From Bacillota bacterium (GTDB lineage Bacteria; Bacillota; Negativicutes; Sporomusales; CTSoil-080): a stretch of 64,000 nucleotides of DNA. This document shows positions 1,142 through 62,045 of the stretch, piece after piece. The stretch's first letter is position 1; each line of letters starts with the position of its first letter. Made by a program: the position numbers and the translations under genes. The notes below the pieces were generated by a model. The model was not told the origin of the DNA. It did no database searches and saw only the letters and a program-made list of their open reading frames with translations. The stretch lies in contig JAGGAC010000010.1 of the NCBI GenBank assembly GCA_017889635.1, positions 18,105 to 82,104 on the forward strand, given 5' to 3'.

Positions 1142-1615
1142 CTAATGATAACAGGCAATAGAACAAGTTTTTCCATCCACCGCTGCCAAAAGATTATCAG
1201 GACTAACAATAACCTGGCAACCGCGTATACCGCCGCTAACTGCTATAACAGGCCAAGATAAAGCGCTTTCGTCAAGATATACCTGAAAGCGCTTTTTAGT
1301 ACCAATCGGTGATACACCGCCGCGAATATAACCAGTCAGCGGCTGTACCTCCTTGAGCGCAACCAGCTCAGTCCTTTTATTGCCACTTATCATAGCAACA
1401 GCCTTAAGATCAAGCTCTGCCGCTCCTGGTACACAGGCCAAAAATACCCCTGTTTTATCCCCGCGTACCACCAATGTTTTAAATACCTGCGCTAGTGGCA
1501 TTCCCACTTTAGATGCAACATTCTCGGCACTTAAGTCATTTTCATCAACCTCATAACTTTTTAGTTCATAGTCGAAGCCTAACCCCGCCAAAATGCGAGC
1601 AACATTTGTTTTCAT
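1142..1615 (-). CDS. ybaK: YbaK/ProX-family Cys-tRNA(Pro) deacylase
   Basis: The 157-aa ORF has YbaK/ebsC-like sequence (…GYIRGGVSPIG…). It sits in the same orientation as the downstream thrC. Confidence 0.7.
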   Translation of the reverse strand: MKTNVARILAGLGFDYELKSYEVDENDLSAENVASKVGMPLAQVFKTLVVRGDKTGVFLACVPGAAELDLKAVAMISGNKRTELVALKEVQPLTGYIRGGVSPIGTKKRFQVYLDESALSWPVIAVSGGIRGCQVIVSPDNLLAAVDGKTCSIACYH

Positions 1616-1906
1616 CTTGACAACCTCATTTTATTACACTCAATCCCTACTCCAGTATCACCATAACCAACTTCAGCCGCATGACAAACTGAATAGTACT
1701 CTTATGTAAAATCCCGTCAATATATACCATTATTTTTCACAGTATATAGTGCTTTTTCGGCTTTGTCAACTAGTCTGTCTGACACGAAAAGACTTGGCTT
1801 ACGCCCTTTTTATCTTAGGCATAAGCCAAGTTCAAATCCCAAAATCTAAGTCTTCAACAAAAGTAACTATAAATTTTGCTATCGCAAAAAAACTCAAAAC
1901 AATTAA

Positions 1907-2173
1907 CTAAAAATCCAACATCATCGACTTTACTTTAACATGAGGAACAGCGGAAAGTTTTTCTTCCAACTCAGAAGTAGTTGCTTGGTCACCACAAAGC
2001 TGCAATAAAATAAGCCCTGAGTTGCTGCAACTATCCACTGCGGCCTCATGAAGACCAAGTCTCAGCCGAATATGGCATCCATACTTTGTAAGAAGTTCTT
2101 GAACCTTTGGAGCTGTGTCAACACGGTTTTCCTGAAGAATAGCCATTATCTTTGAACAATTAGCCATACTCAT
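1907..2173 (-). CDS. small ACT-like domain protein (regulatory, in aro operon)
   Basis: The 88-aa ORF has a beta-alpha-beta-beta-alpha-beta-like pattern. It lies immediately downstream of aroF in the same orientation. Confidence 0.45.
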   Translation of the reverse strand: MSMANCSKIMAILQENRVDTAPKVQELLTKYGCHIRLRLGLHEAAVDSCSNSGLILLQLCGDQATTSELEEKLSAVPHVKVKSMMLDF

Positions 2174-2295
2174 GTGTTAGATCACCTCACATAAAATTCC
2201 TATACTTATATATCTTTCCCCAAAAGTTCTTTAATCTAATCAATAACACAACAAAAAAGGAGCCGCTTTTAAATTAGCGCTCCCCTTAAGTAAAT

Positions 2296-3309
2296 TTATT
2301 TTAGTTGCGGCATGAACTCAATAAGTCGCTCCACCGCCTGCATTAAATTAAAATAATTGCTTGGATTTAAAGACTGCGGTCCGTCGGACAGAGCTTCGGC
2401 AGGATTAGGATGAACCTCTACCATCAGTCCATCAGCTCCGGCTGCCAATGCCGCCAGAGACATTGATTTAACCAGCTTCCATCTGCCAGTGCCATGGCTT
2501 GGATCAACAATAATCGGCAAATGGCTTAGCTCCTTTATCGCCCCAACCGCGCTCAAATCCAAAGTATTGCGGGTATATTCCTCATAAGTGCGAATTCCGC
2601 GTTCACACATAATAACATCATAATTTCCCTCATTAAGAATATACTCGGCAGCATGTAGCCACTCACTAATAGTCGCAGCAATACCACGCTTCAAGAGCAC
2701 TGGCTTTCCAGCCCGTCCCACCGCCTTTAGGAGCTGGAAATTTTGCATATTGCGAGCTCCAATCTGAAGTATATCAGCATATTCGGCAACCGCATCCACC
2801 GAAGTTACTTCTGTCACCTCAGTCACGATCTTAAGACCAGTTGCCTCGCGAGCCTCGGCCAGATACTCCAACCCCTTAAGCTCAAGCCCCTGAAAGGAGT
2901 AAGGCGAGGTTCTTGGTTTATAGGCCCCGCCGCGAAGCATTTGAGCGCCACCCTCCTTAACAAGCATCGCCGCTTCCATTAACTGTTCTCGGCTTTCTAC
3001 TGCACACGGCCCAGCCATAACCACAACATTGCCGCCACCAATCTTAACGCCGTCGACATCTACCACTGTAGAATCAGGCCGGAATTTGCGACTGGCCAAT
3101 TTATAACTTTCAGTAATCGGAATTACCCTCTCCACTCCGTCCAGAGCCTCAACAGGCATAGTAGCTATCATCCGTTTATCGCCAATCAAACCAATAATAA
3201 CCGGTCCTTGTTCACTTGAGACAAACGTTTTTAGTCCAGCGGCGTGAATGCGATCCACCACCTGCTTAACCTGAGAATCTGTGGCGTTTACATTCATTAC
3301 GATAACCAT
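2296..3309 (-). CDS. aroF: 3-deoxy-7-phosphoheptulonate (DAHP) synthase, type I-beta with N-terminal regulatory domain
   Basis: The 337-aa ORF has an N-terminal ferredoxin-like/ACT extension followed by a KDO8PS/DAHPS TIM-barrel core (…GPCAVES…IVDPSHG…). It follows pheA with an 11-nt gap. Confidence 0.8.
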
Positions 3310-4194: not shown

Positions 4195-4480
4195 AAAAAA
4201 ATAAAACCCTCATCCCCTAAAGGACGAGAGCTGTTCTCGCGGTACCACCTTTGTTACCTGCCCTAACAGTAGCAGGTCACTATTATGAAGTACGGGCTTC
4301 GTGCCGATACTCCCCTCCTTTTAACGGCAAAGGCAACCGTCATTACCTACCACCAACTTAAGGCTTCAGCATGCTACTCCAAAGAGAACTTCGGCATATC
4401 CCTTGTACCAGGCTCTCACCATCCCCGGCTCTCTGCACCTAAAGATTATGCTTACTTTTCTTTATCATCGTATTTTGAAC
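4195..4480 (-). promoter_or_regulatory. T-box riboswitch leader controlling the pheA-aroF operon
   Basis: The plus strand carries CGCGGTACCACC, the reverse complement of the conserved T-box GGTGGTACCGCG. On the minus strand it is followed by a terminator hairpin (AAAGGACGAGAGCTGTTCTC…GGGATGAGGGTTTTATTTTTTT). A Stem-I-like AGAGAG element lies upstream. The candidate specifier is UUC (Phe) or UAC (Tyr). Confidence 0.7.
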
Positions 4481-6330: not shown

Positions 6331-7403
6331 TTCACCATATCATCGTTCATTTTGATTGAAATATCTAATAAATGCATAGCGAGCGAAGCACCAGCCCCTT
6401 CACCAAGTCGCAACCCCATATCAATATACGCCTCAAGTCCAAGAACACGGAGCATTTTTGCATGTGCTGGCTCCGCGGAGAGATGCGATGCCAACATAAA
6501 GCCCTTACAAAGTGGACTTAAAGAATTAGCAATAAGCCCCGCCGCAGTAGCGTTGAAGCCATCAATGACCACAATACAGCGTTTAGCTGCCGCAGCTAAA
6601 ATAACGCCAGCCAAAGCGCCGAGCTCAAATCCGCCAACCTTGGCGAGAATATCAATACCATCTTCCGGGTCAGGGTTATTTATCGCTAATGCCTGGCGAA
6701 CAGCAGCAATCTTTACCCGCATACGCCTATCAGATATTCCGGTACCCCGACCAGTAGCTTCTTTTGGAGTTAATCCCTCAAAGGCTGCTGTAATTGCAGC
6801 GCTGGACGTTGTATTTCCGATCCCCATTTCTCCTAGGCTAAAACAGCGATACCCTCGTTCCACTAATTCATCAACAACTGTAATTCCTGTTTCTATAGCA
6901 CTAATGGCCTCCGTGCGAGTCATCGCTGGTCCTTCGGTAAAATTCTTCGTCCCCCAAGCAATCTTATGATGCAACAAACCTGGTACATCAGACATATCGC
7001 CAGCAATTCCCATATCAATCACAACCATGTCGGCTTTCGAAAACTTAGCCATAGCATTGGCTCCGGCTCCTTTAGACACGAGATAATTGCGAGTCATCTG
7101 CATCGTTGTTTCAACAGGATAAGCGCTAATGCCAAGTTTAGCCACACCATGATCGGCGCAAGCCAATACCATGCATTTTCGCGGAATACTTGGTCGTTCA
7201 TCACCAATAATACCGGCATACTGTACAACCATGTCTTCCAGCCGTCCTAAGCTCCCCTGGAGCTTCGACAGATTGTCAAACCTCTTTTCCACCACTTGCA
7301 TAACCGCCGCATCAAGTGGTGCTATTTCCGACAAGGTTTCTGCCAACAACGCCCTAATCCCTCCTGCACAAAATGAAAAGGCCTTTTTGATGAGCACCAC
7401 CAA
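6306..7403 (-). CDS. cobT: CobT-family nicotinate-nucleotide:base phosphoribosyltransferase paralog (ArsA-like)
   Basis: The 365-aa ORF has the canonical GEMGIGNTT and LGEGAGAS CobT motifs. The true start may be at an internal Met. Confidence 0.8.
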   Translation of the reverse strand: MVVLIKKAFSFCAGGIRALLAETLSEIAPLDAAVMQVVEKRFDNLSKLQGSLGRLEDMVVQYAGIIGDERPSIPRKCMVLACADHGVAKLGISAYPVETTMQMTRNYLVSKGAGANAMAKFSKADMVVIDMGIAGDMSDVPGLLHHKIAWGTKNFTEGPAMTRTEAISAIETGITVVDELVERGYRCFSLGEMGIGNTTSSAAITAAFEGLTPKEATGRGTGISDRRMRVKIAAVRQALAINNPDPEDGIDILAKVGGFELGALAGVILAAAAKRCIVVIDGFNATAAGLIANSLSPLCKGFMLASHLSAEPAHAKMLRVLGLEAYIDMGLRLGEGAGASLAMHLLDISIKMNDDMVKCSESKVL

Positions 7404-7873: not shown

Positions 7874-8071
7874 CTATACCATTTCATGATGTGGCATGCC
7901 GCATCGAGGACAATAATCATGGTGATGATGTTTATACTCGTGACCGCAGTAAGAACATACCCTTACAACATGATAGCAACAATCTTCATAAATCTTATAT
8001 TTTATTTCACCAACGCATCTTCTCATGCACTTAGGCTTGCAGTAATGGCCGCAACCTTCATATCGATCCAT
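7874..8071 (-). CDS. Cys/His-rich small protein (candidate spore coat / metal-binding protein)
   Basis: The 65-aa product has about 11 Cys and 10 His, including HHHH. A perfect RBS AAAGGAGGT lies 9 nt before the ATG. A sigma-K-like promoter lies upstream. Confidence 0.55.
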   Translation of the reverse strand: MDRYEGCGHYCKPKCMRRCVGEIKYKIYEDCCYHVVRVCSYCGHEYKHHHHDYCPRCGMPHHEMV

Positions 8072-8095
8072 TATTCAAATACCTCCTTTCTACTA

Positions 8096-8123
8096 TACGA
8101 TATGCACAATGGCGACAACATGT
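8096..8123 (-). promoter_or_regulatory. sigma-K-type promoter (AC-17 nt-CATATCGTA) for the Cys/His-rich gene
   Basis: The minus strand reads AC ATGTTGTCGCCATTGTG CATATCGTA, which fits AC-17-CATAnnnTA. The RBS begins about 9 nt downstream of the -10, so the leader is very short. Confidence 0.4.
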
Positions 8124-8183
8124 TATGTTTTGCATTACTTTTTTGATTATTTGCTTCTTAGTTAGAGATAGGTGTAAACAGTA

Positions 8184-8211
8184 ACACTATTTACCGATTA
8201 TTCATACTGTA
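8184..8211 (+). promoter_or_regulatory. sigma-K-type promoter (AC-17 nt-CATACTGTA) for the 8251 gene
   Basis: The plus strand reads AC ACTATTTACCGATTATT CATACTGTA, which fits AC-17-CATAnnnTA. It is followed by an RBS GGAGG and the ATG at 8251. Confidence 0.45.
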
Positions 8212-8250
8212 TAGTAAGCTAAATTCAATCCCAGAAGGAGGTAATATTAG

Positions 8251-8838
8251 ATGAGTATTTTTCGGGAACTTTGTAATTGTGCTCTAATTAGGGAATTAGG
8301 GCGTGAACTTAACACTGATGTTCTTTTATTTGGGTTCGACGGCTTTACTTATTTTGGTACCTTACAGGCAATCGACGATTCACGAATTGCCATTCTTTCA
8401 CCAGCAGTTGAAGCTGAAACCAGCAATGTTGAAATTCTTTCGCCAGGCGGAGAACTTGTCGAAGTAAAATTTGCCCGCGTAGATCTATGGCAGATAGTTG
8501 CAAAGGGTACAGGAATAGTAACTGACCCTATCGATCCTCCGCGGCCGCCAGGTCCAGCCGTTGTCCTCCAGGAAGCATCATTAGGAACTACCGAGCGACA
8601 GGAAAGTTGCGATTTAATTCGCTGGCTCGCCCGTCAAGTAGGTGATGACGTTGCAATAACTACTCTCGGTGGGTTCCTCTTTGAAGGAACTCTCAGCGAA
8701 CTTGATGACTGCTTAGCGATTCTGTCGGTAGACGACATTTTTGTCCCTGGTACCAGTTCCAGCATTTCAAGTAACAATCTGAGATCGGTAGTAATCAATC
8801 TTAACGCCATTACGTCAGTGTCCGGGGCCACGAGCTAA
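8251..8838 (+). CDS. hypothetical protein with two tandem Sm-like/small-barrel repeats
   Basis: The 195-aa product has a strong RBS (AGAAGGAGGT). It shows an internal duplication: LLFGFDGFTYFGTLQAIDDSRIAILS versus ITTLGGFLFEGTLSELDDCLAILS. Confidence 0.6.
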   Translation: MSIFRELCNCALIRELGRELNTDVLLFGFDGFTYFGTLQAIDDSRIAILSPAVEAETSNVEILSPGGELVEVKFARVDLWQIVAKGTGIVTDPIDPPRPPGPAVVLQEASLGTTERQESCDLIRWLARQVGDDVAITTLGGFLFEGTLSELDDCLAILSVDDIFVPGTSSSISSNNLRSVVINLNAITSVSGATS

Positions 8839-8916
8839 CAATCCATCTTATGTAAAAGGACCCGGTTCAATAACTACCGGGTCTTTGTTAATTACAAAAT
8901 TGAGGAGGTTAAAACC

Positions 8917-9768
8917 ATGCTTATAGCCGTAGAACATCTTGGCGAAGTCGGGGTAGGAATAACTACACCGCATTTTTTTCGTGCTGACGATGACAATACT
9001 TATGTAGTTAAACTGCAAAACAATCGGCTTGGTCCCAAAGTTTTAGTAAGCGAGTTTCTAGCAGCGAGAATTGGAAAAATTATGAGACTATGCTTTCCTC
9101 CTAGCAGCTTAATTTTAATACCCAAGGAATTATTAGAGAAAAATCAACAATTGGCCATTACCGGTGTGCAACCAGGATTACATTTCGCATCACAATATTT
9201 GAACAATGCCGAATATCTTGATAAAAACAATTTATCCAAGGCAACTAATATAAAAGAAATGGCAGGAATAATGCTATTCGACCATATGTTCCATAACCTA
9301 GACCGTTCCGGCAACAAAAAAAACCTTTTGCTGTGCCGCGAAGAAGATGCGTTCAAAATATATGCAATTGATAACTCGCATTTATTTAAAGCTGGGCGCT
9401 GGACAGTTAAGTCCCTTGAAAAATTGGCAAACAATAAAAAAATTTATTATCGGCGTAATTTCGGGCTATTACTCAAAGACTGTCTTACCCCCGATGACTT
9501 TCTATCATATCTTGAAAACTTAAAAAAGCTTACCGATAGCGAGATTACCAACATAATTAACGATATCCCTGCTGAATGGTTAACAGATGAAACCGAACGG
9601 CAGGCATTGGCTCAGCACATCAAAATTCGGCGAGACGTTGTCACGCAGCTCTGGCAAAAACTGTGCAACAACATCCCGCGAAAACGCGGCGGACGAAAAC
9701 CAATTAATAGCAAAGTAATTCGCTTGACTAATCACAACAATAATTTAACCAGCACTCCGCTCAAGTAA
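8917..9768 (+). CDS. atypical protein-kinase-like fold protein (PI3/4K- / HipA- / spore-kinase-like)
   Basis: The 283-aa product has a strong RBS (GAGGAGGT). It has a Gly-rich N-terminal stretch and a catalytic-loop-like FDHMFHNLDRSGNKKNLLL followed by a DFG-like AIDNS. The family assignment is uncertain. Confidence 0.6.
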   Translation: MLIAVEHLGEVGVGITTPHFFRADDDNTYVVKLQNNRLGPKVLVSEFLAARIGKIMRLCFPPSSLILIPKELLEKNQQLAITGVQPGLHFASQYLNNAEYLDKNNLSKATNIKEMAGIMLFDHMFHNLDRSGNKKNLLLCREEDAFKIYAIDNSHLFKAGRWTVKSLEKLANNKKIYYRRNFGLLLKDCLTPDDFLSYLENLKKLTDSEITNIINDIPAEWLTDETERQALAQHIKIRRDVVTQLWQKLCNNIPRKRGGRKPINSKVIRLTNHNNNLTSTPLK

Positions 9769-9791: not shown

Positions 9792-9834
9792 GTAAACCTC
9801 GGCCTCCGCTTAGTTAACGGCGGCCGAGGTTTAC
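9792..9834. terminator. bidirectional hairpin between convergent genes
   Basis: GTAAACCTCGGCC…GGCCGAGGTTTAC forms a 13-bp stem between the 8917 gene (+) and fcl (-). Confidence 0.45.
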
Positions 9835-10800
9835 TTATGTATTCGCCCTATACCAATTAATAGTCTGAGCCAACCCAACCTCTAGCGGCGTTGTTGCTAT
9901 AAACCCAAACAACTGATTGGCTTTACTTATATCAAGAGCACGTCGTGGCTGACCGTTAGGTTTGTCTTTATCCCATAAAACCAAACCTTCAAAACCAGTC
10001 AGTTCTTTAATTTTTTTAACCAACTCTTTGATTGTCACTTCCTGTCCAGTCCCCAAATTAACTGGCAAACATCCGTTATATTGTTCTGTGGCCAACACAA
10101 TTCCTGTTGCAGCATCAGTAACATATAAAAACTCACGGCTAGCCGATCCATCACCCCAAACCGCTATTTCTCTAAGGCCAGAACGTTTTGCCTCCAAACA
10201 TTTTCTAATAAGGGCTGGAATCACATGTGAAGTAGACAAATCAAAATTGTCACCAGGACCATATAAATTAACCGGCATTAAAAATATAGCATTAAACCCG
10301 TACTGATCACGATAAGCTTGGCTTTGCACAAGCATCATTTTCTTGGCCAATCCGTACGGAGCGTTAGTTTCTTCTGGATAGCCGTCCCAAAGACTTTCTT
10401 CTTTAAATGGCACTGGACAGTGTTTAGGATAAGAACAAACTGTTCCGATAGCTACAAACTTCTCAATACCATAAAGTCTACCGTACTCAATAAGCTGAGT
10501 CCCCATCATAAGATTATCATAGAAATACTTGCCCGGATTTTCTCGATTGGCCCCAATACCACCAACCACTGCCGCCAGATGAATAACTATATCCGGTCGG
10601 AACGTCTCATACATTCTGATAATACTCTGTTCTTTAGTTAAATCATAGTCGACGCTTCGAGGAACAAAAAGTTCTGTGCACCCGCGCTCTTTAAGGGTTG
10701 CCACCACCTTTGATCCAAGAAACCCCGCCCCTCCAGTAACAACAATCCGGCGCTGCCGATAAAAATCCACATCAATCCCTCCTGCCCTTTTATTCAGCAT
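9835..10800 (-). CDS. fcl: GDP-L-fucose synthase
   Basis: The 321-aa ORF has an SDR-extended fold with the N-terminal [10 protein letters not shown] motif and belongs to the GDP-fucose synthase family. Confidence 0.85.
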
Positions 10801-11875
10801 GATTGTGGATACTAAACCCCTTGCTAAGACACAATAAGTCTTTTTCGGTCCGTTTTATATCCTCTTCAACCATCATCCGAACAAGTTCGGCAAAGGACAC
10901 CGACGGCTGCCAACCCAGCTTATCGGCAGCCTTACTCGAATCAGCTACCAATAGATCCACCTCTGTTGGTCGGAAAAAACGGCGGTCTATTTTAACAAGC
11001 ACTTTACCAGTAGCCATATCTATACCTTGTTCATCAAGACCCTCGCCCTGCCATTCAATATCAATGCCAACTCTTTGGTAAGCCAACTCCACAAACTCCC
11101 TCACCGAGTGAGTCTCGCCTGTACCAATTACATAATCATCCGGCACAGGCTGCTGTAACATCAGCCACATAGCCCGCACATAATCTCCGGCGTACCCCCA
11201 GTCGCGTTTGGCATTCAAATTACCCAAATACAAAGTATCTTGCAAACCCATTTTAGTCCGTGCGGCACTGCGGGAAATCTTTCGGGTGACAAAAGTCTCG
11301 CCCCGCAAAGGTGACTCATGGTTAAATAAAACGCCGTTACAAGCAAAAAAATCATAAGCTTCACGATAATTTACCGTTATCCAATACGCATAAAGTTTTG
11401 CAACACCATAAGGGCTGCGAGGATAAAAAGGAGTTGTTTCCCGTTGAGGTATCTCCTGTACCTTTCCAAATAATTCACTAGTAGACGCCTGATAAAATCT
11501 TGTACTTTTCTCCATTCCCAATAGCCTGACAGCTTCCAACAATCTAAGCGTTCCAATAGCATCAGTATTAGCAGTATATTCAGGAGACTCAAACGAAATC
11601 TTGACATGAGATTGAGCCGCTAAATTATATATTTCATCAGGCTCAGCAATTTGTAAAATACGCCCTAAATTGGCCCCATCCGTCAAATCCCCGAAGTGAA
11701 GAAAAAACCGGCCTTCCAACTGATTAACACGTTGATACAACTCATCAATACGCTCGGAATTTGGCACCGATGTTTTGCGCATAATTCCATGCACCTGATA
11801 ACCATGCCGTAACAAATAATCAGCTAAGTAAGCACCATCCTGGCCAGTTATGCCGGTTATTAAAGCCTTTTTCAC
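10790..11875 (-). CDS. gmd: GDP-mannose 4,6-dehydratase
   Basis: The 361-aa ORF starts [17 protein letters not shown]…. It overlaps fcl by 11 nt, which is the classic gmd-fcl pair. Confidence 0.85.
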
Positions 11876-37137: not shown

Positions 37138-37213
37138 TGGCAGGGGCAGTAGGACTTGAACCCACAACCAACGGTTTTGGAGACCGCTACTCTACCAATT
37201 GAGCTATACCCCT
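37102..37213. repeat. left copy of ~110-bp direct repeat (tRNA-Trp + terminator)
   Basis: It is near-identical to 44932-45043 and differs at a few positions in the T-arm half. Confidence 0.7.
37138..37213 (-). tRNA. trnW: tRNA-Trp (CCA), copy 1
   Basis: The minus strand reads AGGGGTATAGCTCAATTGGTAGAGTAGCGGTCTCCAAAACCGTTGGTTGTGGGTTCAAGTCCTACTGCCCCTGCCA. The anticodon loop CTCCAAA gives CCA. Confidence 0.9.
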
Positions 37214-44931: not shown

Positions 44932-45043
44932 AACACGGCATAAATCCGTGTCATTCCTTGTTTTTTCTGGCAGGGGCAGAAGGACTTGAACCCTCAACCA
45001 ACGGTTTTGGAGACCGCTACTCTACCAATTGAGCTATACCCCT
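44932..45043. repeat. right copy of ~110-bp direct repeat (tRNA-Trp + terminator)
   Basis: It matches 37102-37213. Confidence 0.7.
44968..45043 (-). tRNA. trnW: tRNA-Trp (CCA), copy 2
   Basis: It is the same as copy 1 except for a few T-arm substitutions. Confidence 0.9.
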
Positions 45044-45048
45044 ATAAA

Positions 45049-45106
45049 TGGAGCGGAAAAACCCTCGCCTTGGCAAGGCGATGCTCTACCACTGAGCTAT
45101 TTCCGC
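45049..45106 (-). pseudogene. truncated tRNA-Gly(GCC) lacking the T-arm
   Basis: The minus strand reads GCGGAAATAGCTCAGTGGTAGAGCATCGCCTTGCCAAGGCGAGGG-TT-TTTCCGCTCCA. The ~18-nt T stem-loop present in the intact copy at 53930-54004 is replaced by 2 nt. Confidence 0.6.
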
Positions 45107-45112
45107 ATACGC

Positions 45113-45189
45113 TGGCGACCCCGAAGGGATTTGAACCCTCGATCTCCGCCGTGACAGGGCGGCATGTTAGACCACTACACCATGGGGCC
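45113..45189 (-). tRNA. trnD: tRNA-Asp (GTC), copy 1
   Basis: The minus strand reads GGCCCCATGGTGTAGTGGTCTAACATGCCGCCCTGTCACGGCGGAGATCGAGGGTTCAAATCCCTTCGGGGTCGCCA. Confidence 0.9.
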
Positions 45190-51795: not shown

Positions 51796-51884
51796 TGGTG
51801 CCGAGGACCGGAATCGAACCGGTACGGATGTTTCCATCCGACGGATTTTAAGTCCGTTGCGTCTGCCTGTTCCGCCACCCCGGC
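51796..51884 (-). tRNA. trnL: tRNA-Leu (TAA)
   Basis: This is an 89-nt class II tRNA with a long variable arm. The anticodon loop is CTTAAAA. Confidence 0.9.
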
Positions 51885-53847: not shown

Positions 53848-53922
<75 letters not shown>

Positions 53923-53929
53923 AATTAAG

Positions 53930-54004
53930 TGGAGCGGAAGACGAGATTCGAACTCGCGACCCTCGCCTTGGCAAGGCGATGCTCTACCACTGAGCTACTT
54001 CCGC
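53930..54004 (-). tRNA. trnG: tRNA-Gly (GCC)
   Basis: GCGGAAGTAGCTCAGTGGTAGAGCATCGCCTTGCCAAGGCGAGGGTCGCGAGTTCGAATCTCGTCTTCCGCTCCA. Confidence 0.9.
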
Positions 54005-54008
54005 ATAA

Positions 54009-54084
<76 letters not shown>

Positions 54085-54098
54085 ATTACATTATAAAA

Positions 54099-54175
54099 TG
54101 GCGACCCCGAAGGGATTTGAACCCTCGATCTCCGCCGTGACAGGGCGGCATGTTAGACCACTACACCACGGGGCC
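54099..54175 (-). tRNA. trnD: tRNA-Asp (GTC), copy 2
   Basis: Same as copy 1, except the acceptor reads GGCCCCGTGG. Confidence 0.9.
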
Positions 54176-56538: not shown

Positions 56539-56676
56539 AAATTACTTTCAAAAGACCTGTCGCTTAGGCGTCAAGTCTTTTTTTATGCTTAATAGTCCCT
56601 TATAATCATTCACCCTCCCCAGGCGCACCACATAAAATAAAGAAAAGCCTAGAAAACTAAAACAGGAGATGATTAA

Positions 56677-57216
56677 GTGCCCAAACCTCTTAATTCCCAC
56701 AATCCCCGAAGCTATTTCGCAACTTCAACCACTTGTAACAACTATACCCCATGCGTTGCGGTTGCTGAAATCATGGGTAGCCCTCTCGCCCCAAAGCTAA
56801 GAGGACAGGTTTTTTTCACCGCCGTACCAGGTGGAACCGAGGTCTGTGTTGAAATCTGCAATCTACCGCCTTATCACCCTGCCCAAGGCGATAACCCTCA
56901 AGTCGGGCCACACGGTTTTCACATTCACGAATGTGGCAACTGCGAAATATGCGATCCAACTAATCCATTCACCTCAGCGGGCGGCCACTGGAACCCAAAC
57001 AAGCAACCACACGGCAACCACGCCGGTGATTTTCCCGCATTATTCTCTAACCACGGTTATTCGTGTATGACCTTTTTTACTGATAAATTTTGCGTCCCGG
57101 ATATTATCGGAAAATCGGTCATAATTCATCAAAGCCCCGACGACTATCGAACCCAACCAGCAGGAAACTCTGGCAAGCGTCTAGCTTGCGGCATAATTAA
57201 ATCTTCTCATAACTGA
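56677..57216 (+). CDS. Cu/Zn superoxide dismutase-like family protein
   Basis: It has a GTG start after AGGAGAT. It has HGFHIHE, GGHWNP, HGNHAGD and C-terminal GKRLACGII motifs, with no signal peptide. Confidence 0.6.
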   Translation: MPKPLNSHNPRSYFATSTTCNNYTPCVAVAEIMGSPLAPKLRGQVFFTAVPGGTEVCVEICNLPPYHPAQGDNPQVGPHGFHIHECGNCEICDPTNPFTSAGGHWNPNKQPHGNHAGDFPALFSNHGYSCMTFFTDKFCVPDIIGKSVIIHQSPDDYRTQPAGNSGKRLACGIIKSSHN

Positions 57217-61789: not shown

Positions 61790-62045
61790 GTTTAAATGCG
61801 ATGCGCGGGATAAGTAAGTCATTTTTGTTTTTCAGAGAGCCGAGGGAACGGTGCGACTTGGCAAACCGATTGACTGAAATACACCCGCAAGCTGCAGGCT
61901 GAAGGTAATAGTAGGCCGAGTCGGTAGCCGCCGTTACAGGCTTGAAGGGTTTGACCCTTCGTTAAGCGGCTTTGTATTGGCAACAAGGGTGGTACCGCGG
62001 GTTTTAAGCCCGTCCCTCATTAGGAGGGACGGGCTTTTATTTATT
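61790..62045 (+). promoter_or_regulatory. T-box riboswitch leader (Tyr) upstream of tyrS
   Basis: It has a Stem-I AGAGAG element, a likely specifier GAAAUACA (UAC), the conserved AACAAGGGTGGTACCGCGG, and a terminator AAGCCCGTCCC…GGGACGGGCTTTTATTT. Confidence 0.75.

Follow-up and report, generated by a model that had tools for sequence, protein, structure and literature searches.

Two adjacent, co-oriented genes at positions 8251 to 9768 of a 64,000-nucleotide (nt) window of the Bacillota bacterium contig JAGGAC010000010.1 (Negativicutes, Sporomusales) encode an acidic protein with two Sm folds in tandem and a divergent kinase of the HipA_2 family (PF20613). The window is the whole stretch of DNA that was analyzed, and all positions count from its first nucleotide unless a locus in another genome is named. 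The pair recurs in the same order in other Negativicutes, together with a conserved promoter motif of the sigma-K type upstream and a conserved intrinsic terminator motif between the two genes. Our favored interpretation, held with a little less than even confidence, is that the two genes form a late mother-cell operon, in which an abundant Sm-fold protein would become part of a spore layer and a kinase produced by transcriptional read-through would modify the Sm-like protein or other coat proteins. The kinase belongs to a known family, with a new partner, a new mode of regulation, and a new biological setting.

The Sm-like gene (8251 to 8838, plus strand) encodes 195 amino acids (aa) with an isoelectric point (pI) of ~4.3, and the kinase gene (8917 to 9768, plus strand) encodes 283 aa with a pI of ~9.3. 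Both open reading frames (ORFs) have strong ribosome-binding sites, read from the sequence as AAGGAGG (8235 to 8241, plus strand) and GAGGAGG (8902 to 8908, plus strand). The 78-nt spacer between the ORFs contains a GC-rich hairpin followed by a T-rich tail. The operon ends at a bidirectional terminator hairpin (AAACCTCGGCC...GGCCGAGGTTT; 9794 to 9832), also read from the sequence, which is common to the kinase gene and a convergent GDP-fucose synthase gene. Identical proteins are on record for a "Firmicutes bacterium" (H6Q73_1266/1267), which is a Negativicutes metagenome-assembled genome (MAG). A first-pass annotation made from the sequence of the window had described two co-oriented ORFs, an internal duplication in the upstream protein, kinase motifs in the downstream one, and a hairpin between them, all of which are real, and the two genes do form a unit across the hairpin.

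The 283-aa protein is a divergent member of PF20613 (HipA_2, "HipA-like kinase," clan CL0016). It matches this model at 87.6 bits, with a gathering cutoff of 27, and the match spans residues 10 to 231, equivalent to profile positions 7 to 216 of 240. Among the matches listed, all 120 homologs carry PF20613, and their NCBI name is "HipA family kinase." The protein also matches component A of a PADLOC defense system (PDC-M66A; 1.9e-16, 58 bits) and phrog_3162 (3.6e-37). The family, which the first-pass annotation had called unclear, is therefore settled by the Pfam threshold. The protein is also not much shorter than its relatives, as had been supposed, since PF20613 kinases have ~250 to 290 aa and 283 aa is a normal length for the family. 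A resemblance to the CotS/BSK spore kinases had been suggested as well, and it found no counterpart in the profiles: no Pfam match to CotH (PF08757), CotS/BSK, or APH (PF01636) was obtained at an E value of ≤1, nor was any to HipA_C (PF07804), HipA_N, or Couple_hipA. The PI3/PI4-kinase Pfam match was subthreshold only, no NCBIfam model matches either the kinase or the Sm-like protein, and a sequence search against PDB chains returned noise only (E ≥ 0.7).

The proposed likeness to PI3/4-kinases and HipA is borne out at the level of structure. The AlphaFold2 model of the kinase, built on 19 homologs, has a bilobal protein-kinase-like fold (predicted local distance difference test score [pLDDT], 84.9; predicted template modeling score [pTM], 0.82). 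The top Foldseek matches in the PDB are PI4KIIalpha, CtkA, Fam20C, and HipA (probability, 1.00; E values down to 9e-7; template modeling [TM] scores of ~0.5 to 0.56), with HipA represented by structures 4pu4, 3dnt, and 3tpv. The best of these are type II PI4-kinases and CtkA of Helicobacter pylori, a protein of similar size (E values of 9e-7 to 4e-6; TM scores of 0.50 to 0.56), but the sequence identities are only 14 to 16%, and these proteins are a lipid kinase (PI4KII) and a secreted effector (CtkA). The model is confident except for the C-terminal tail of the kinase (residues 261 to 283, or 251 to 283 in the annotation of the gene), which is disordered and basic, with a pI of ~12, and the median pI of the kinases in the family is 9.3. 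In an alignment of 19 sequences, G14, K32, E46, D122, H126, D129, N136, and the D152-N-S-H stretch are invariant. They include the ATP-binding Lys and its Glu partner (K32 and E46), the catalytic Asp (D129), and the Mg-binding Asn and Asp (N136 and D152), so the Lys, Asp, Asn, and Asp singled out in the first reading (codons at 9010 to 9012, 9301 to 9303, 9322 to 9324, and 9370 to 9372, respectively) are indeed a conserved catalytic set. All catalytic residues also align with those of a canonical phage HipA_2 kinase, with which the protein shares 26% identity over 232 aa. The protein is very probably an active PF20613 kinase.

The upstream protein is a tandem Sm-like protein, as had been proposed, and its internal duplication is confirmed. 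Its AlphaFold2 model (pLDDT, 83.8; pTM, 0.82) comprises two barrels, each with a helix and five strands, and shows the N-terminal helix and strongly bent five-strand sheet that define the Sm fold. The barrels are joined by a disordered, variable linker (residues 97 to 116), which is hypervariable across homologs and may be GS rich, Cys/Pro rich, or made of NTNSH repeats, and many orthologs have a Cys-rich C-terminal tail, often ending in CC or CCC. The family is strongly acidic, with a median pI of 4.3 and a pI of ~4.0 to 4.3 for each barrel. The match to Pfam LSM (PF01423) scores 16.6 bits, below the cutoff of 23.4, and involves the C-terminal barrel only; no helix-turn-helix or other DNA-binding antitoxin domain was found in the protein. 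The loop FVPGTSSSIS in the second barrel (residues ~165 to 176) is confined to the kinase-linked subfamily. The family is small, with only 58 clusters matched when its profile was searched against 1.84 billion cluster representatives, and neither Pfam nor NCBIfam has a model for it. A literature search for Sm-like spore proteins in Negativicutes returned nothing relevant, and the family and its promoter-defined link to sporulation appear to be undescribed in the literature searched. The possibility that the protein is a disguised DUF3037 was rejected (hhalign probability, 0.6%).

A scan with the Sm-like profile, with one genome taken per species, gave 25 loci, all from Sporomusaceae-type Negativicutes (Sporomusa, Pelosinus, Propionispora, Lucifera, and related MAGs). 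The kinase gene lies directly downstream of the Sm-like gene in 24 of them, the exception being a second Lucifera copy. The pair is also present, outside these 25 loci, in Thermosinus and in Pelosinus IPA-1, where the 246-aa Sm-like protein had been split by the gene caller. Overall, in each of the 26 other loci examined that carry the kinase, its gene comes directly after the Sm-like gene. The named hosts (Sporomusa, Pelosinus, Propionispora, Lucifera, Thermosinus, and Sporolituus) are all Sporomusaceae-type Negativicutes, and the spore-formers of this class belong to the Sporomusaceae; the exception is a divergent kinase-less family member from a Clostridiales MAG (L046). The flanking genes are kept within genera, and the tautomerase...recG-rpmB neighborhood is common to Sporomusa, Propionispora, and a rumen "Selenomonadales" MAG, with another neighborhood shared within Pelosinus; no gene downstream of the kinase is conserved across loci. 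These conserved flanks and shared neighborhoods indicate vertical inheritance, and the pair appears to belong to the core chromosome rather than to follow the patchy, mobile pattern of defense or toxin-antitoxin modules. No relatives of the Sm-like protein were found in viral contigs (IMG/VR), which hold only distant DUF3037-linked kinases. A phage or mobile origin of the pair was considered and rejected: only six distant viral kinases were found, one in an annotated phage collection (26% identity) and five in IMG/VR (24 to 26%), all of them DUF3037 linked and none with an Sm-like gene. It is highly likely that the Sm-like gene and the kinase gene form a functional pair.

The Sm-like gene is preceded by a sigma-K-type promoter (8181 to 8216, plus strand), with a −35 element GTAACA (8181 to 8186), a 16-nt spacer, and a −10 element CATACTGTATAGTA (8203 to 8216), which matches the pattern AC-N17-CATAnnnTA. 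The sigma-K consensus combines a −35 AC, 16 to 17 nt, and a −10 CATAnnnTA, with ATA as the −35 element of sigma-E; both forms have been described for B. subtilis and C. difficile and argued to hold for all endospore formers (PMC3789822, PMC517825). In the Sm-like family, the promoter core is GTAACA-N16-CATAcAGTATAGTA, and the motif GTAACAcT-N14-TCATAcAGTATAGTA is conserved in 30 of 32 upstream regions, ~50 to 60 nt before the start codon, with a spacer and flanks that are low in information. The 64-kb window has two occurrences of the strict sigma-K pattern, where 0.2 would be expected, and both are in the intergenic region upstream of the Sm-like gene. Likewise, in 344 kb of fetched loci, 26 of the 28 strict matches lie upstream of an Sm-like gene or of a divergent Cys/His-rich ORF. 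A scan for sigma-70 promoters found no site upstream of position 8251, and no operator was found there. A sigma-A reading with TATAGT as the −10 element was rejected, for it would place GTAACA 23 nt upstream, and the position at 17 nt is not conserved. As for sigma-E, the −10 element fits both factors, but the conserved −35 element is of the AC type and not the ATA type; two loci (L028 and L040) carry CATACATTG, which is ambiguous between the two. Sigma-K-type control of the pair is probable on the evidence of these motifs.

The spacer hairpin is an intrinsic terminator (8856 to 8889, plus strand) with the stem AAGGACCCGGT / ACCGGGTCTTT, a 9-nt loop, and a T-rich tail. The terminator consensus between the Sm-like and kinase genes is AAAGACyCGGT-loop-ACCGrGTCTTTTT, and of the 26 pair loci scanned, 24 have the element, L028 lacks it, and in L001 it was not resolved. 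In an alignment of 19 loci, 95.7% of the cells are paired, with compensatory changes in four pairs; the covariation score was reached by none of 500 shuffles. An Rfam scan of the whole window gave no match between 7.4 and 10 kb, so no known riboswitch or leader corresponds to the hairpin. The distance from the end of the terminator to the kinase ATG is 29 to 41 nt in 19 of the 23 loci in which it was reliably measured. Insertions of 130 to 165 nt separate the two in L009, L015, and L017, and L028 has a 28-nt spacer without a terminator. An additional promoter would not fit into the short stretch between the terminator and the kinase ribosome-binding site, which suggests that the kinase is made from read-through transcripts; it may in this way be much less abundant than the Sm-like protein.

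Sm-like genes also occur without the kinase. At the rpmB-recG...tautomerase site of other lineages, there are split single-barrel genes in the arrangement N-C (L030/31) or N-C-N-C-N-C (L038), and a divergent fused Sm-like paralog occupies this site in L047, from a sister MAG of the window's organism, and in L048. An N-C-C' array of single-barrel genes lies at a different site in L034. There is no kinase at L030, L034, L038, L047, or L048, whose Sm-like members show ~28 to 45% identity and have the same GTAACA/GGAACA-N16-CATAnnnTATAGTA promoter, with one sigma-K-like promoter for each array (L038, 4001 to 5831; L034, 4691 to 5576; L030, 5001 to 5579). The occurrence of Sm-like genes alone in several lineages suggests that the Sm-like protein has a function of its own, to which the kinase is an add-on. 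GT41 (OGT-like) glycosyltransferase genes adjoin two of the kinase-less arrays. In L040, a gene convergent with the tandem-Sm gene (1581 to 2816, minus strand) encodes a collagen-like protein with GPP/GPS repeats and a beta-helix-like C-terminal region, which resembles BclA-type exosporium proteins and has no Pfam match. In addition, a protein with a SPOCS (SipL) domain is encoded after the kinase in Pelosinus IPA-1.

In the late mother-cell reading, a sigma-K-type promoter would drive strong transcription of the acidic tandem-Sm protein late in the mother cell. In spore-forming Negativicutes, the protein would probably serve the outer layers of the spore (coat or exosporium) as a self-assembling building block or a scaffold; such a spore-layer role is plausible, at somewhat less than an even chance. 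Most transcripts would end at the intergenic terminator, and the fraction that reads through would yield a little kinase. The kinase would have been recruited from the HipA-DUF3037 toxin-kinase lineage, and its proposed targets for binding and phosphorylation are the Sm-like protein or other proteins of the spore surface, in the manner of CotH, which phosphorylates CotB and CotG in the Bacillus spore coat; it is doubtful that the Sm-like protein itself is the substrate. The proposed logic is that of CotH, CotS, and BSK, with an atypical mother-cell kinase encoded beside an abundant coat protein and acting on it, and Fam20C-like folds, to which CotH is related, are among the fold matches of the kinase. 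However, no sequence-family relationship of these kinases to the one described here was found in Pfam at an E value of ≤1, and a coat location is only proposed for the latter. The guess of the first-pass annotation that the protein might be a coat kinase gains some support: the sigma-K-type promoter is conserved, the distribution is restricted to spore-formers, and the neighboring genes point the same way. Among spore-associated small beta-barrels, MnxE/F (exosporium Mn-oxidase ring) and GerQ (coat filaments) offer points of comparison for the Sm-like protein.

Several observations weigh against this interpretation. The sigma-K dependence is suggested by a motif match to a consensus mapped in organisms other than the hosts, and conservation of the −10 block extends 5 nt past that consensus, which could point to another factor. 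The only experimentally characterized PF20613 kinases are toxins, and an excess of the upstream partner would also be expected of a toxin-antitoxin pair. The support from neighbors is limited to one or a few loci for the SPOCS, collagen-like, and GT41 proteins. In structure, the Sm-like protein matches ordinary LSm proteins better than it does GerQ or MnxF. Finally, the FVPGTSSSIS loop is a candidate phospho-acceptor that is neither supported nor excluded: positions 168, 169, and 173 vary in a wider set of sequences (T/S/A/N, S/C/N, and S/T/C, respectively), and no single Ser/Thr position is invariant.

The main rival, which we consider unlikely, is that the pair is a HipA-type toxin-antitoxin or abortive-infection module that has been domesticated, with the Sm-like protein as a stoichiometric inhibitor in place of DUF3037, HipB, or HipS. 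The kinase would arrest growth by phosphorylating an essential translation factor, and the terminator would ensure an excess of antitoxin; such a module might operate within the mother cell, for instance to fend off phages during sporulation or to time mother-cell shutdown. HipA-like kinases with DUF3037 (PADLOC PDC-M66, DS-6, "HipAD") are a standalone anti-phage system and, experimentally, a toxin/antitoxin defense pair: the kinase is needed for defense, which is lost in a catalytic mutant, and deletion of DUF3037 is toxic (PMC12548924, PMC13092281). The kinase described here matches the toxin gene of this system, has the same Pfam family, size range (~250 to 290 aa), catalytic Lys/Glu/Asp/Asn/Asp residues, and C-terminal IPxEW helix region, and aligns with the phage HipA_2 kinase as given above. 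Both systems consist of two genes, with a partner that probably binds the kinase, and the acidic partner and basic kinase of the present pair suggest direct binding. In addition, the order of the genes, with the partner first and the kinase second behind an attenuating terminator, would keep antitoxin above toxin. The same order is found in HipBA and HipBST, whose kinases belong to the same clan and include HipA, one of the fold matches; KINtaro merges PF07804 and PF20613 into a single kinase-like family. The first-pass suggestion of a toxin-antidote pair is sustained to this extent by the homology to the HipA-DUF3037 defense toxin. It is weakened by the lack of DUF3037, HipB, or HipS and by the setting of the pair. 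The PF20613 score is 87.6 bits here and 258 bits for the canonical phage member, and the partner is upstream, has an Sm fold, and is unrelated to DUF3037. Genes for canonical PF20613 kinases lie directly upstream of a DUF3037 gene, as do those of all six distant viral or phage relatives (one from a lambdoid E. coli phage and five from IMG/VR), whereas at this locus the kinase gene is followed by the bidirectional terminator and the convergent fcl gene, with no DUF3037-type gene in between. In Escherichia phage PhiR5_1 (L029, 2962 to 4535), the HipA_2 kinase and DUF3037 genes, named HipA/HipD by the depositors, are directly downstream of cI, in a moron position; in lambda, this position holds rexAB. 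The present pair, in contrast to such cI-adjacent or defense-island contexts, has a sporulation-type promoter of the sigma-K class and conserved chromosomal synteny that is apparently vertical and not patchy, and viral contigs yielded no example of it. A DNA-binding antitoxin domain, a sigma-70 promoter, and an operator are all lacking. Unlike HipBA and HipBST, the present pair shows no HipA_C, HipA_N, or Couple_hipA match, no helix-turn-helix antitoxin, and no HipS-like protein, and HipA has ~440 aa, compared with 283 aa here. Moreover, Sm-like genes persist without the kinase at the same site and with the same promoter, which would be unusual for a dedicated antitoxin. If the pair nevertheless is a toxin-antitoxin module, its Sm-fold protein would represent a new class of HipA-kinase antitoxin.

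Two further readings are both improbable. The Sm-like protein might be an RNA chaperone of the sporulating cell similar to Hfq or LSm, for example, one that stores or protects spore RNA, with the kinase regulating it. The fold would be consistent with this, but a pI of 4.1 to 5.0 argues against RNA binding, both barrels being strongly acidic (pI of 4.0 to 4.3), and the LSM score is below threshold. In an alignment read by eye, neither the canonical Asn of Sm1 nor the RGD-type motif of Sm2 is retained, and no RNA-binding motifs are recognizable. The protein also differs from Sm, LSm, and Hfq proteins in being a tandem fusion with a disordered linker, and its variable low-complexity linkers and Cys-rich tails are untypical of RNA chaperones. 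Even less credit is given to the view that the two genes are functionally independent, with the terminator separating two units and the kinase having its own unrecognized promoter. The strong terminator, the Sm-like genes without a kinase, and the insertions in L009, L015, and L017 would fit such independence. However, adjacency and orientation are kept in 27 of 27 pair loci with at least three different flanking contexts, the gap from the terminator to the kinase ATG is only 24 to 41 nt in most loci, the spacer in L028 is down to 28 nt with no terminator, and no kinase of this subfamily was seen without an upstream Sm-like gene in the loci examined.

A broader scenario, which we regard as unlikely, is that a HipA-family toxin kinase was captured by the sporulation program of diderm Firmicutes and became a sigma-K-controlled modifier of acidic Sm-fold proteins, which would be spore-envelope components of a class not recognized before. 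In this scenario, the Sm-fold proteins would assemble as N/C hetero-rings or lattices, from a fused tandem protein here and from N-C-N-C-N-C arrays elsewhere. In lineages that lack the kinase, the adjacent GT41 glycosyltransferase would modify these Sm-fold proteins instead, and the locus would thus record alternative Ser/Thr modifications, by phosphate or O-glycan, of a spore-surface scaffold. If the late mother-cell reading is true, the kinase would be the first case in which the HipA/HipA_2 toxin-kinase lineage is placed in a developmental (sporulation) program rather than in a conflict system, and it would offer a concrete case of toxin domestication. Spore-forming Negativicutes would also have a new Sm-fold family that is linked to a sharply delimited promoter motif, and the extended motif GTAACA-N16-CATAnnnTATAGTA could be used to mine the late mother-cell regulon of diderm spore-formers.

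The second strict promoter match of the window (TAACA-N16-CATATCGTATAGTA; 8091 to 8125, minus strand) has the same extended −10 element as that of the Sm-like gene, from which it is divergent, and lies upstream of a 65-aa Cys/His-rich ORF (…CPRCGMPHHEMV; 7874 to 8071, minus strand), which has a weak zinc-ribbon match only. This promoter and ORF are also found in the sister-MAG loci L004 and L005, and they adjoin the pair in these three closely related MAGs only. The ORF is a possible co-regulated neighbor of the pair, with uncertain membership, and a candidate small coat protein. In L006, an extended-motif promoter (…CATAATATATAGTAG) follows right after the kinase gene and precedes a 163-aa acidic, Cys-containing, low-complexity protein (6580 to 7139, plus strand). 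Elsewhere in the window, a looser sigma-K-like match (AC-N17-CATAAAATA) precedes a 179-aa ORF (56612 to 57216, plus strand) with Cu/Zn-superoxide-dismutase-like motifs (HGFHIHE…GGHWNP…HAGDFP…ACGII), as read by eye.

A divergent branch of tandem-Sm proteins is encoded in operons with an FRG-domain protein and a calcineurin-like phosphoesterase (L032, 4098 to 6667; L036, 1090 to 2808), without the sigma-K motif, in what looks like a conflict-system context; the operon of L032 is preceded by two copies of the direct repeat ATAATGTACTGA. Convergent with the kinase gene of the window are genes for a GDP-fucose synthase-like epimerase and a GDP-mannose 4,6-dehydratase (9835 to 11875, minus strand), and a link of these fucose-nucleotide genes to spore-surface glycans is speculative. 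The window also contains two T-box leaders above the Rfam gathering score (4217 to 4477, minus strand, and 61792 to 62020, plus strand), together with tRNA clusters or single tRNA genes identified by Rfam, all on the minus strand (44971 to 45189, 53851 to 54175, 37141 to 37213, and 51799 to 51884).

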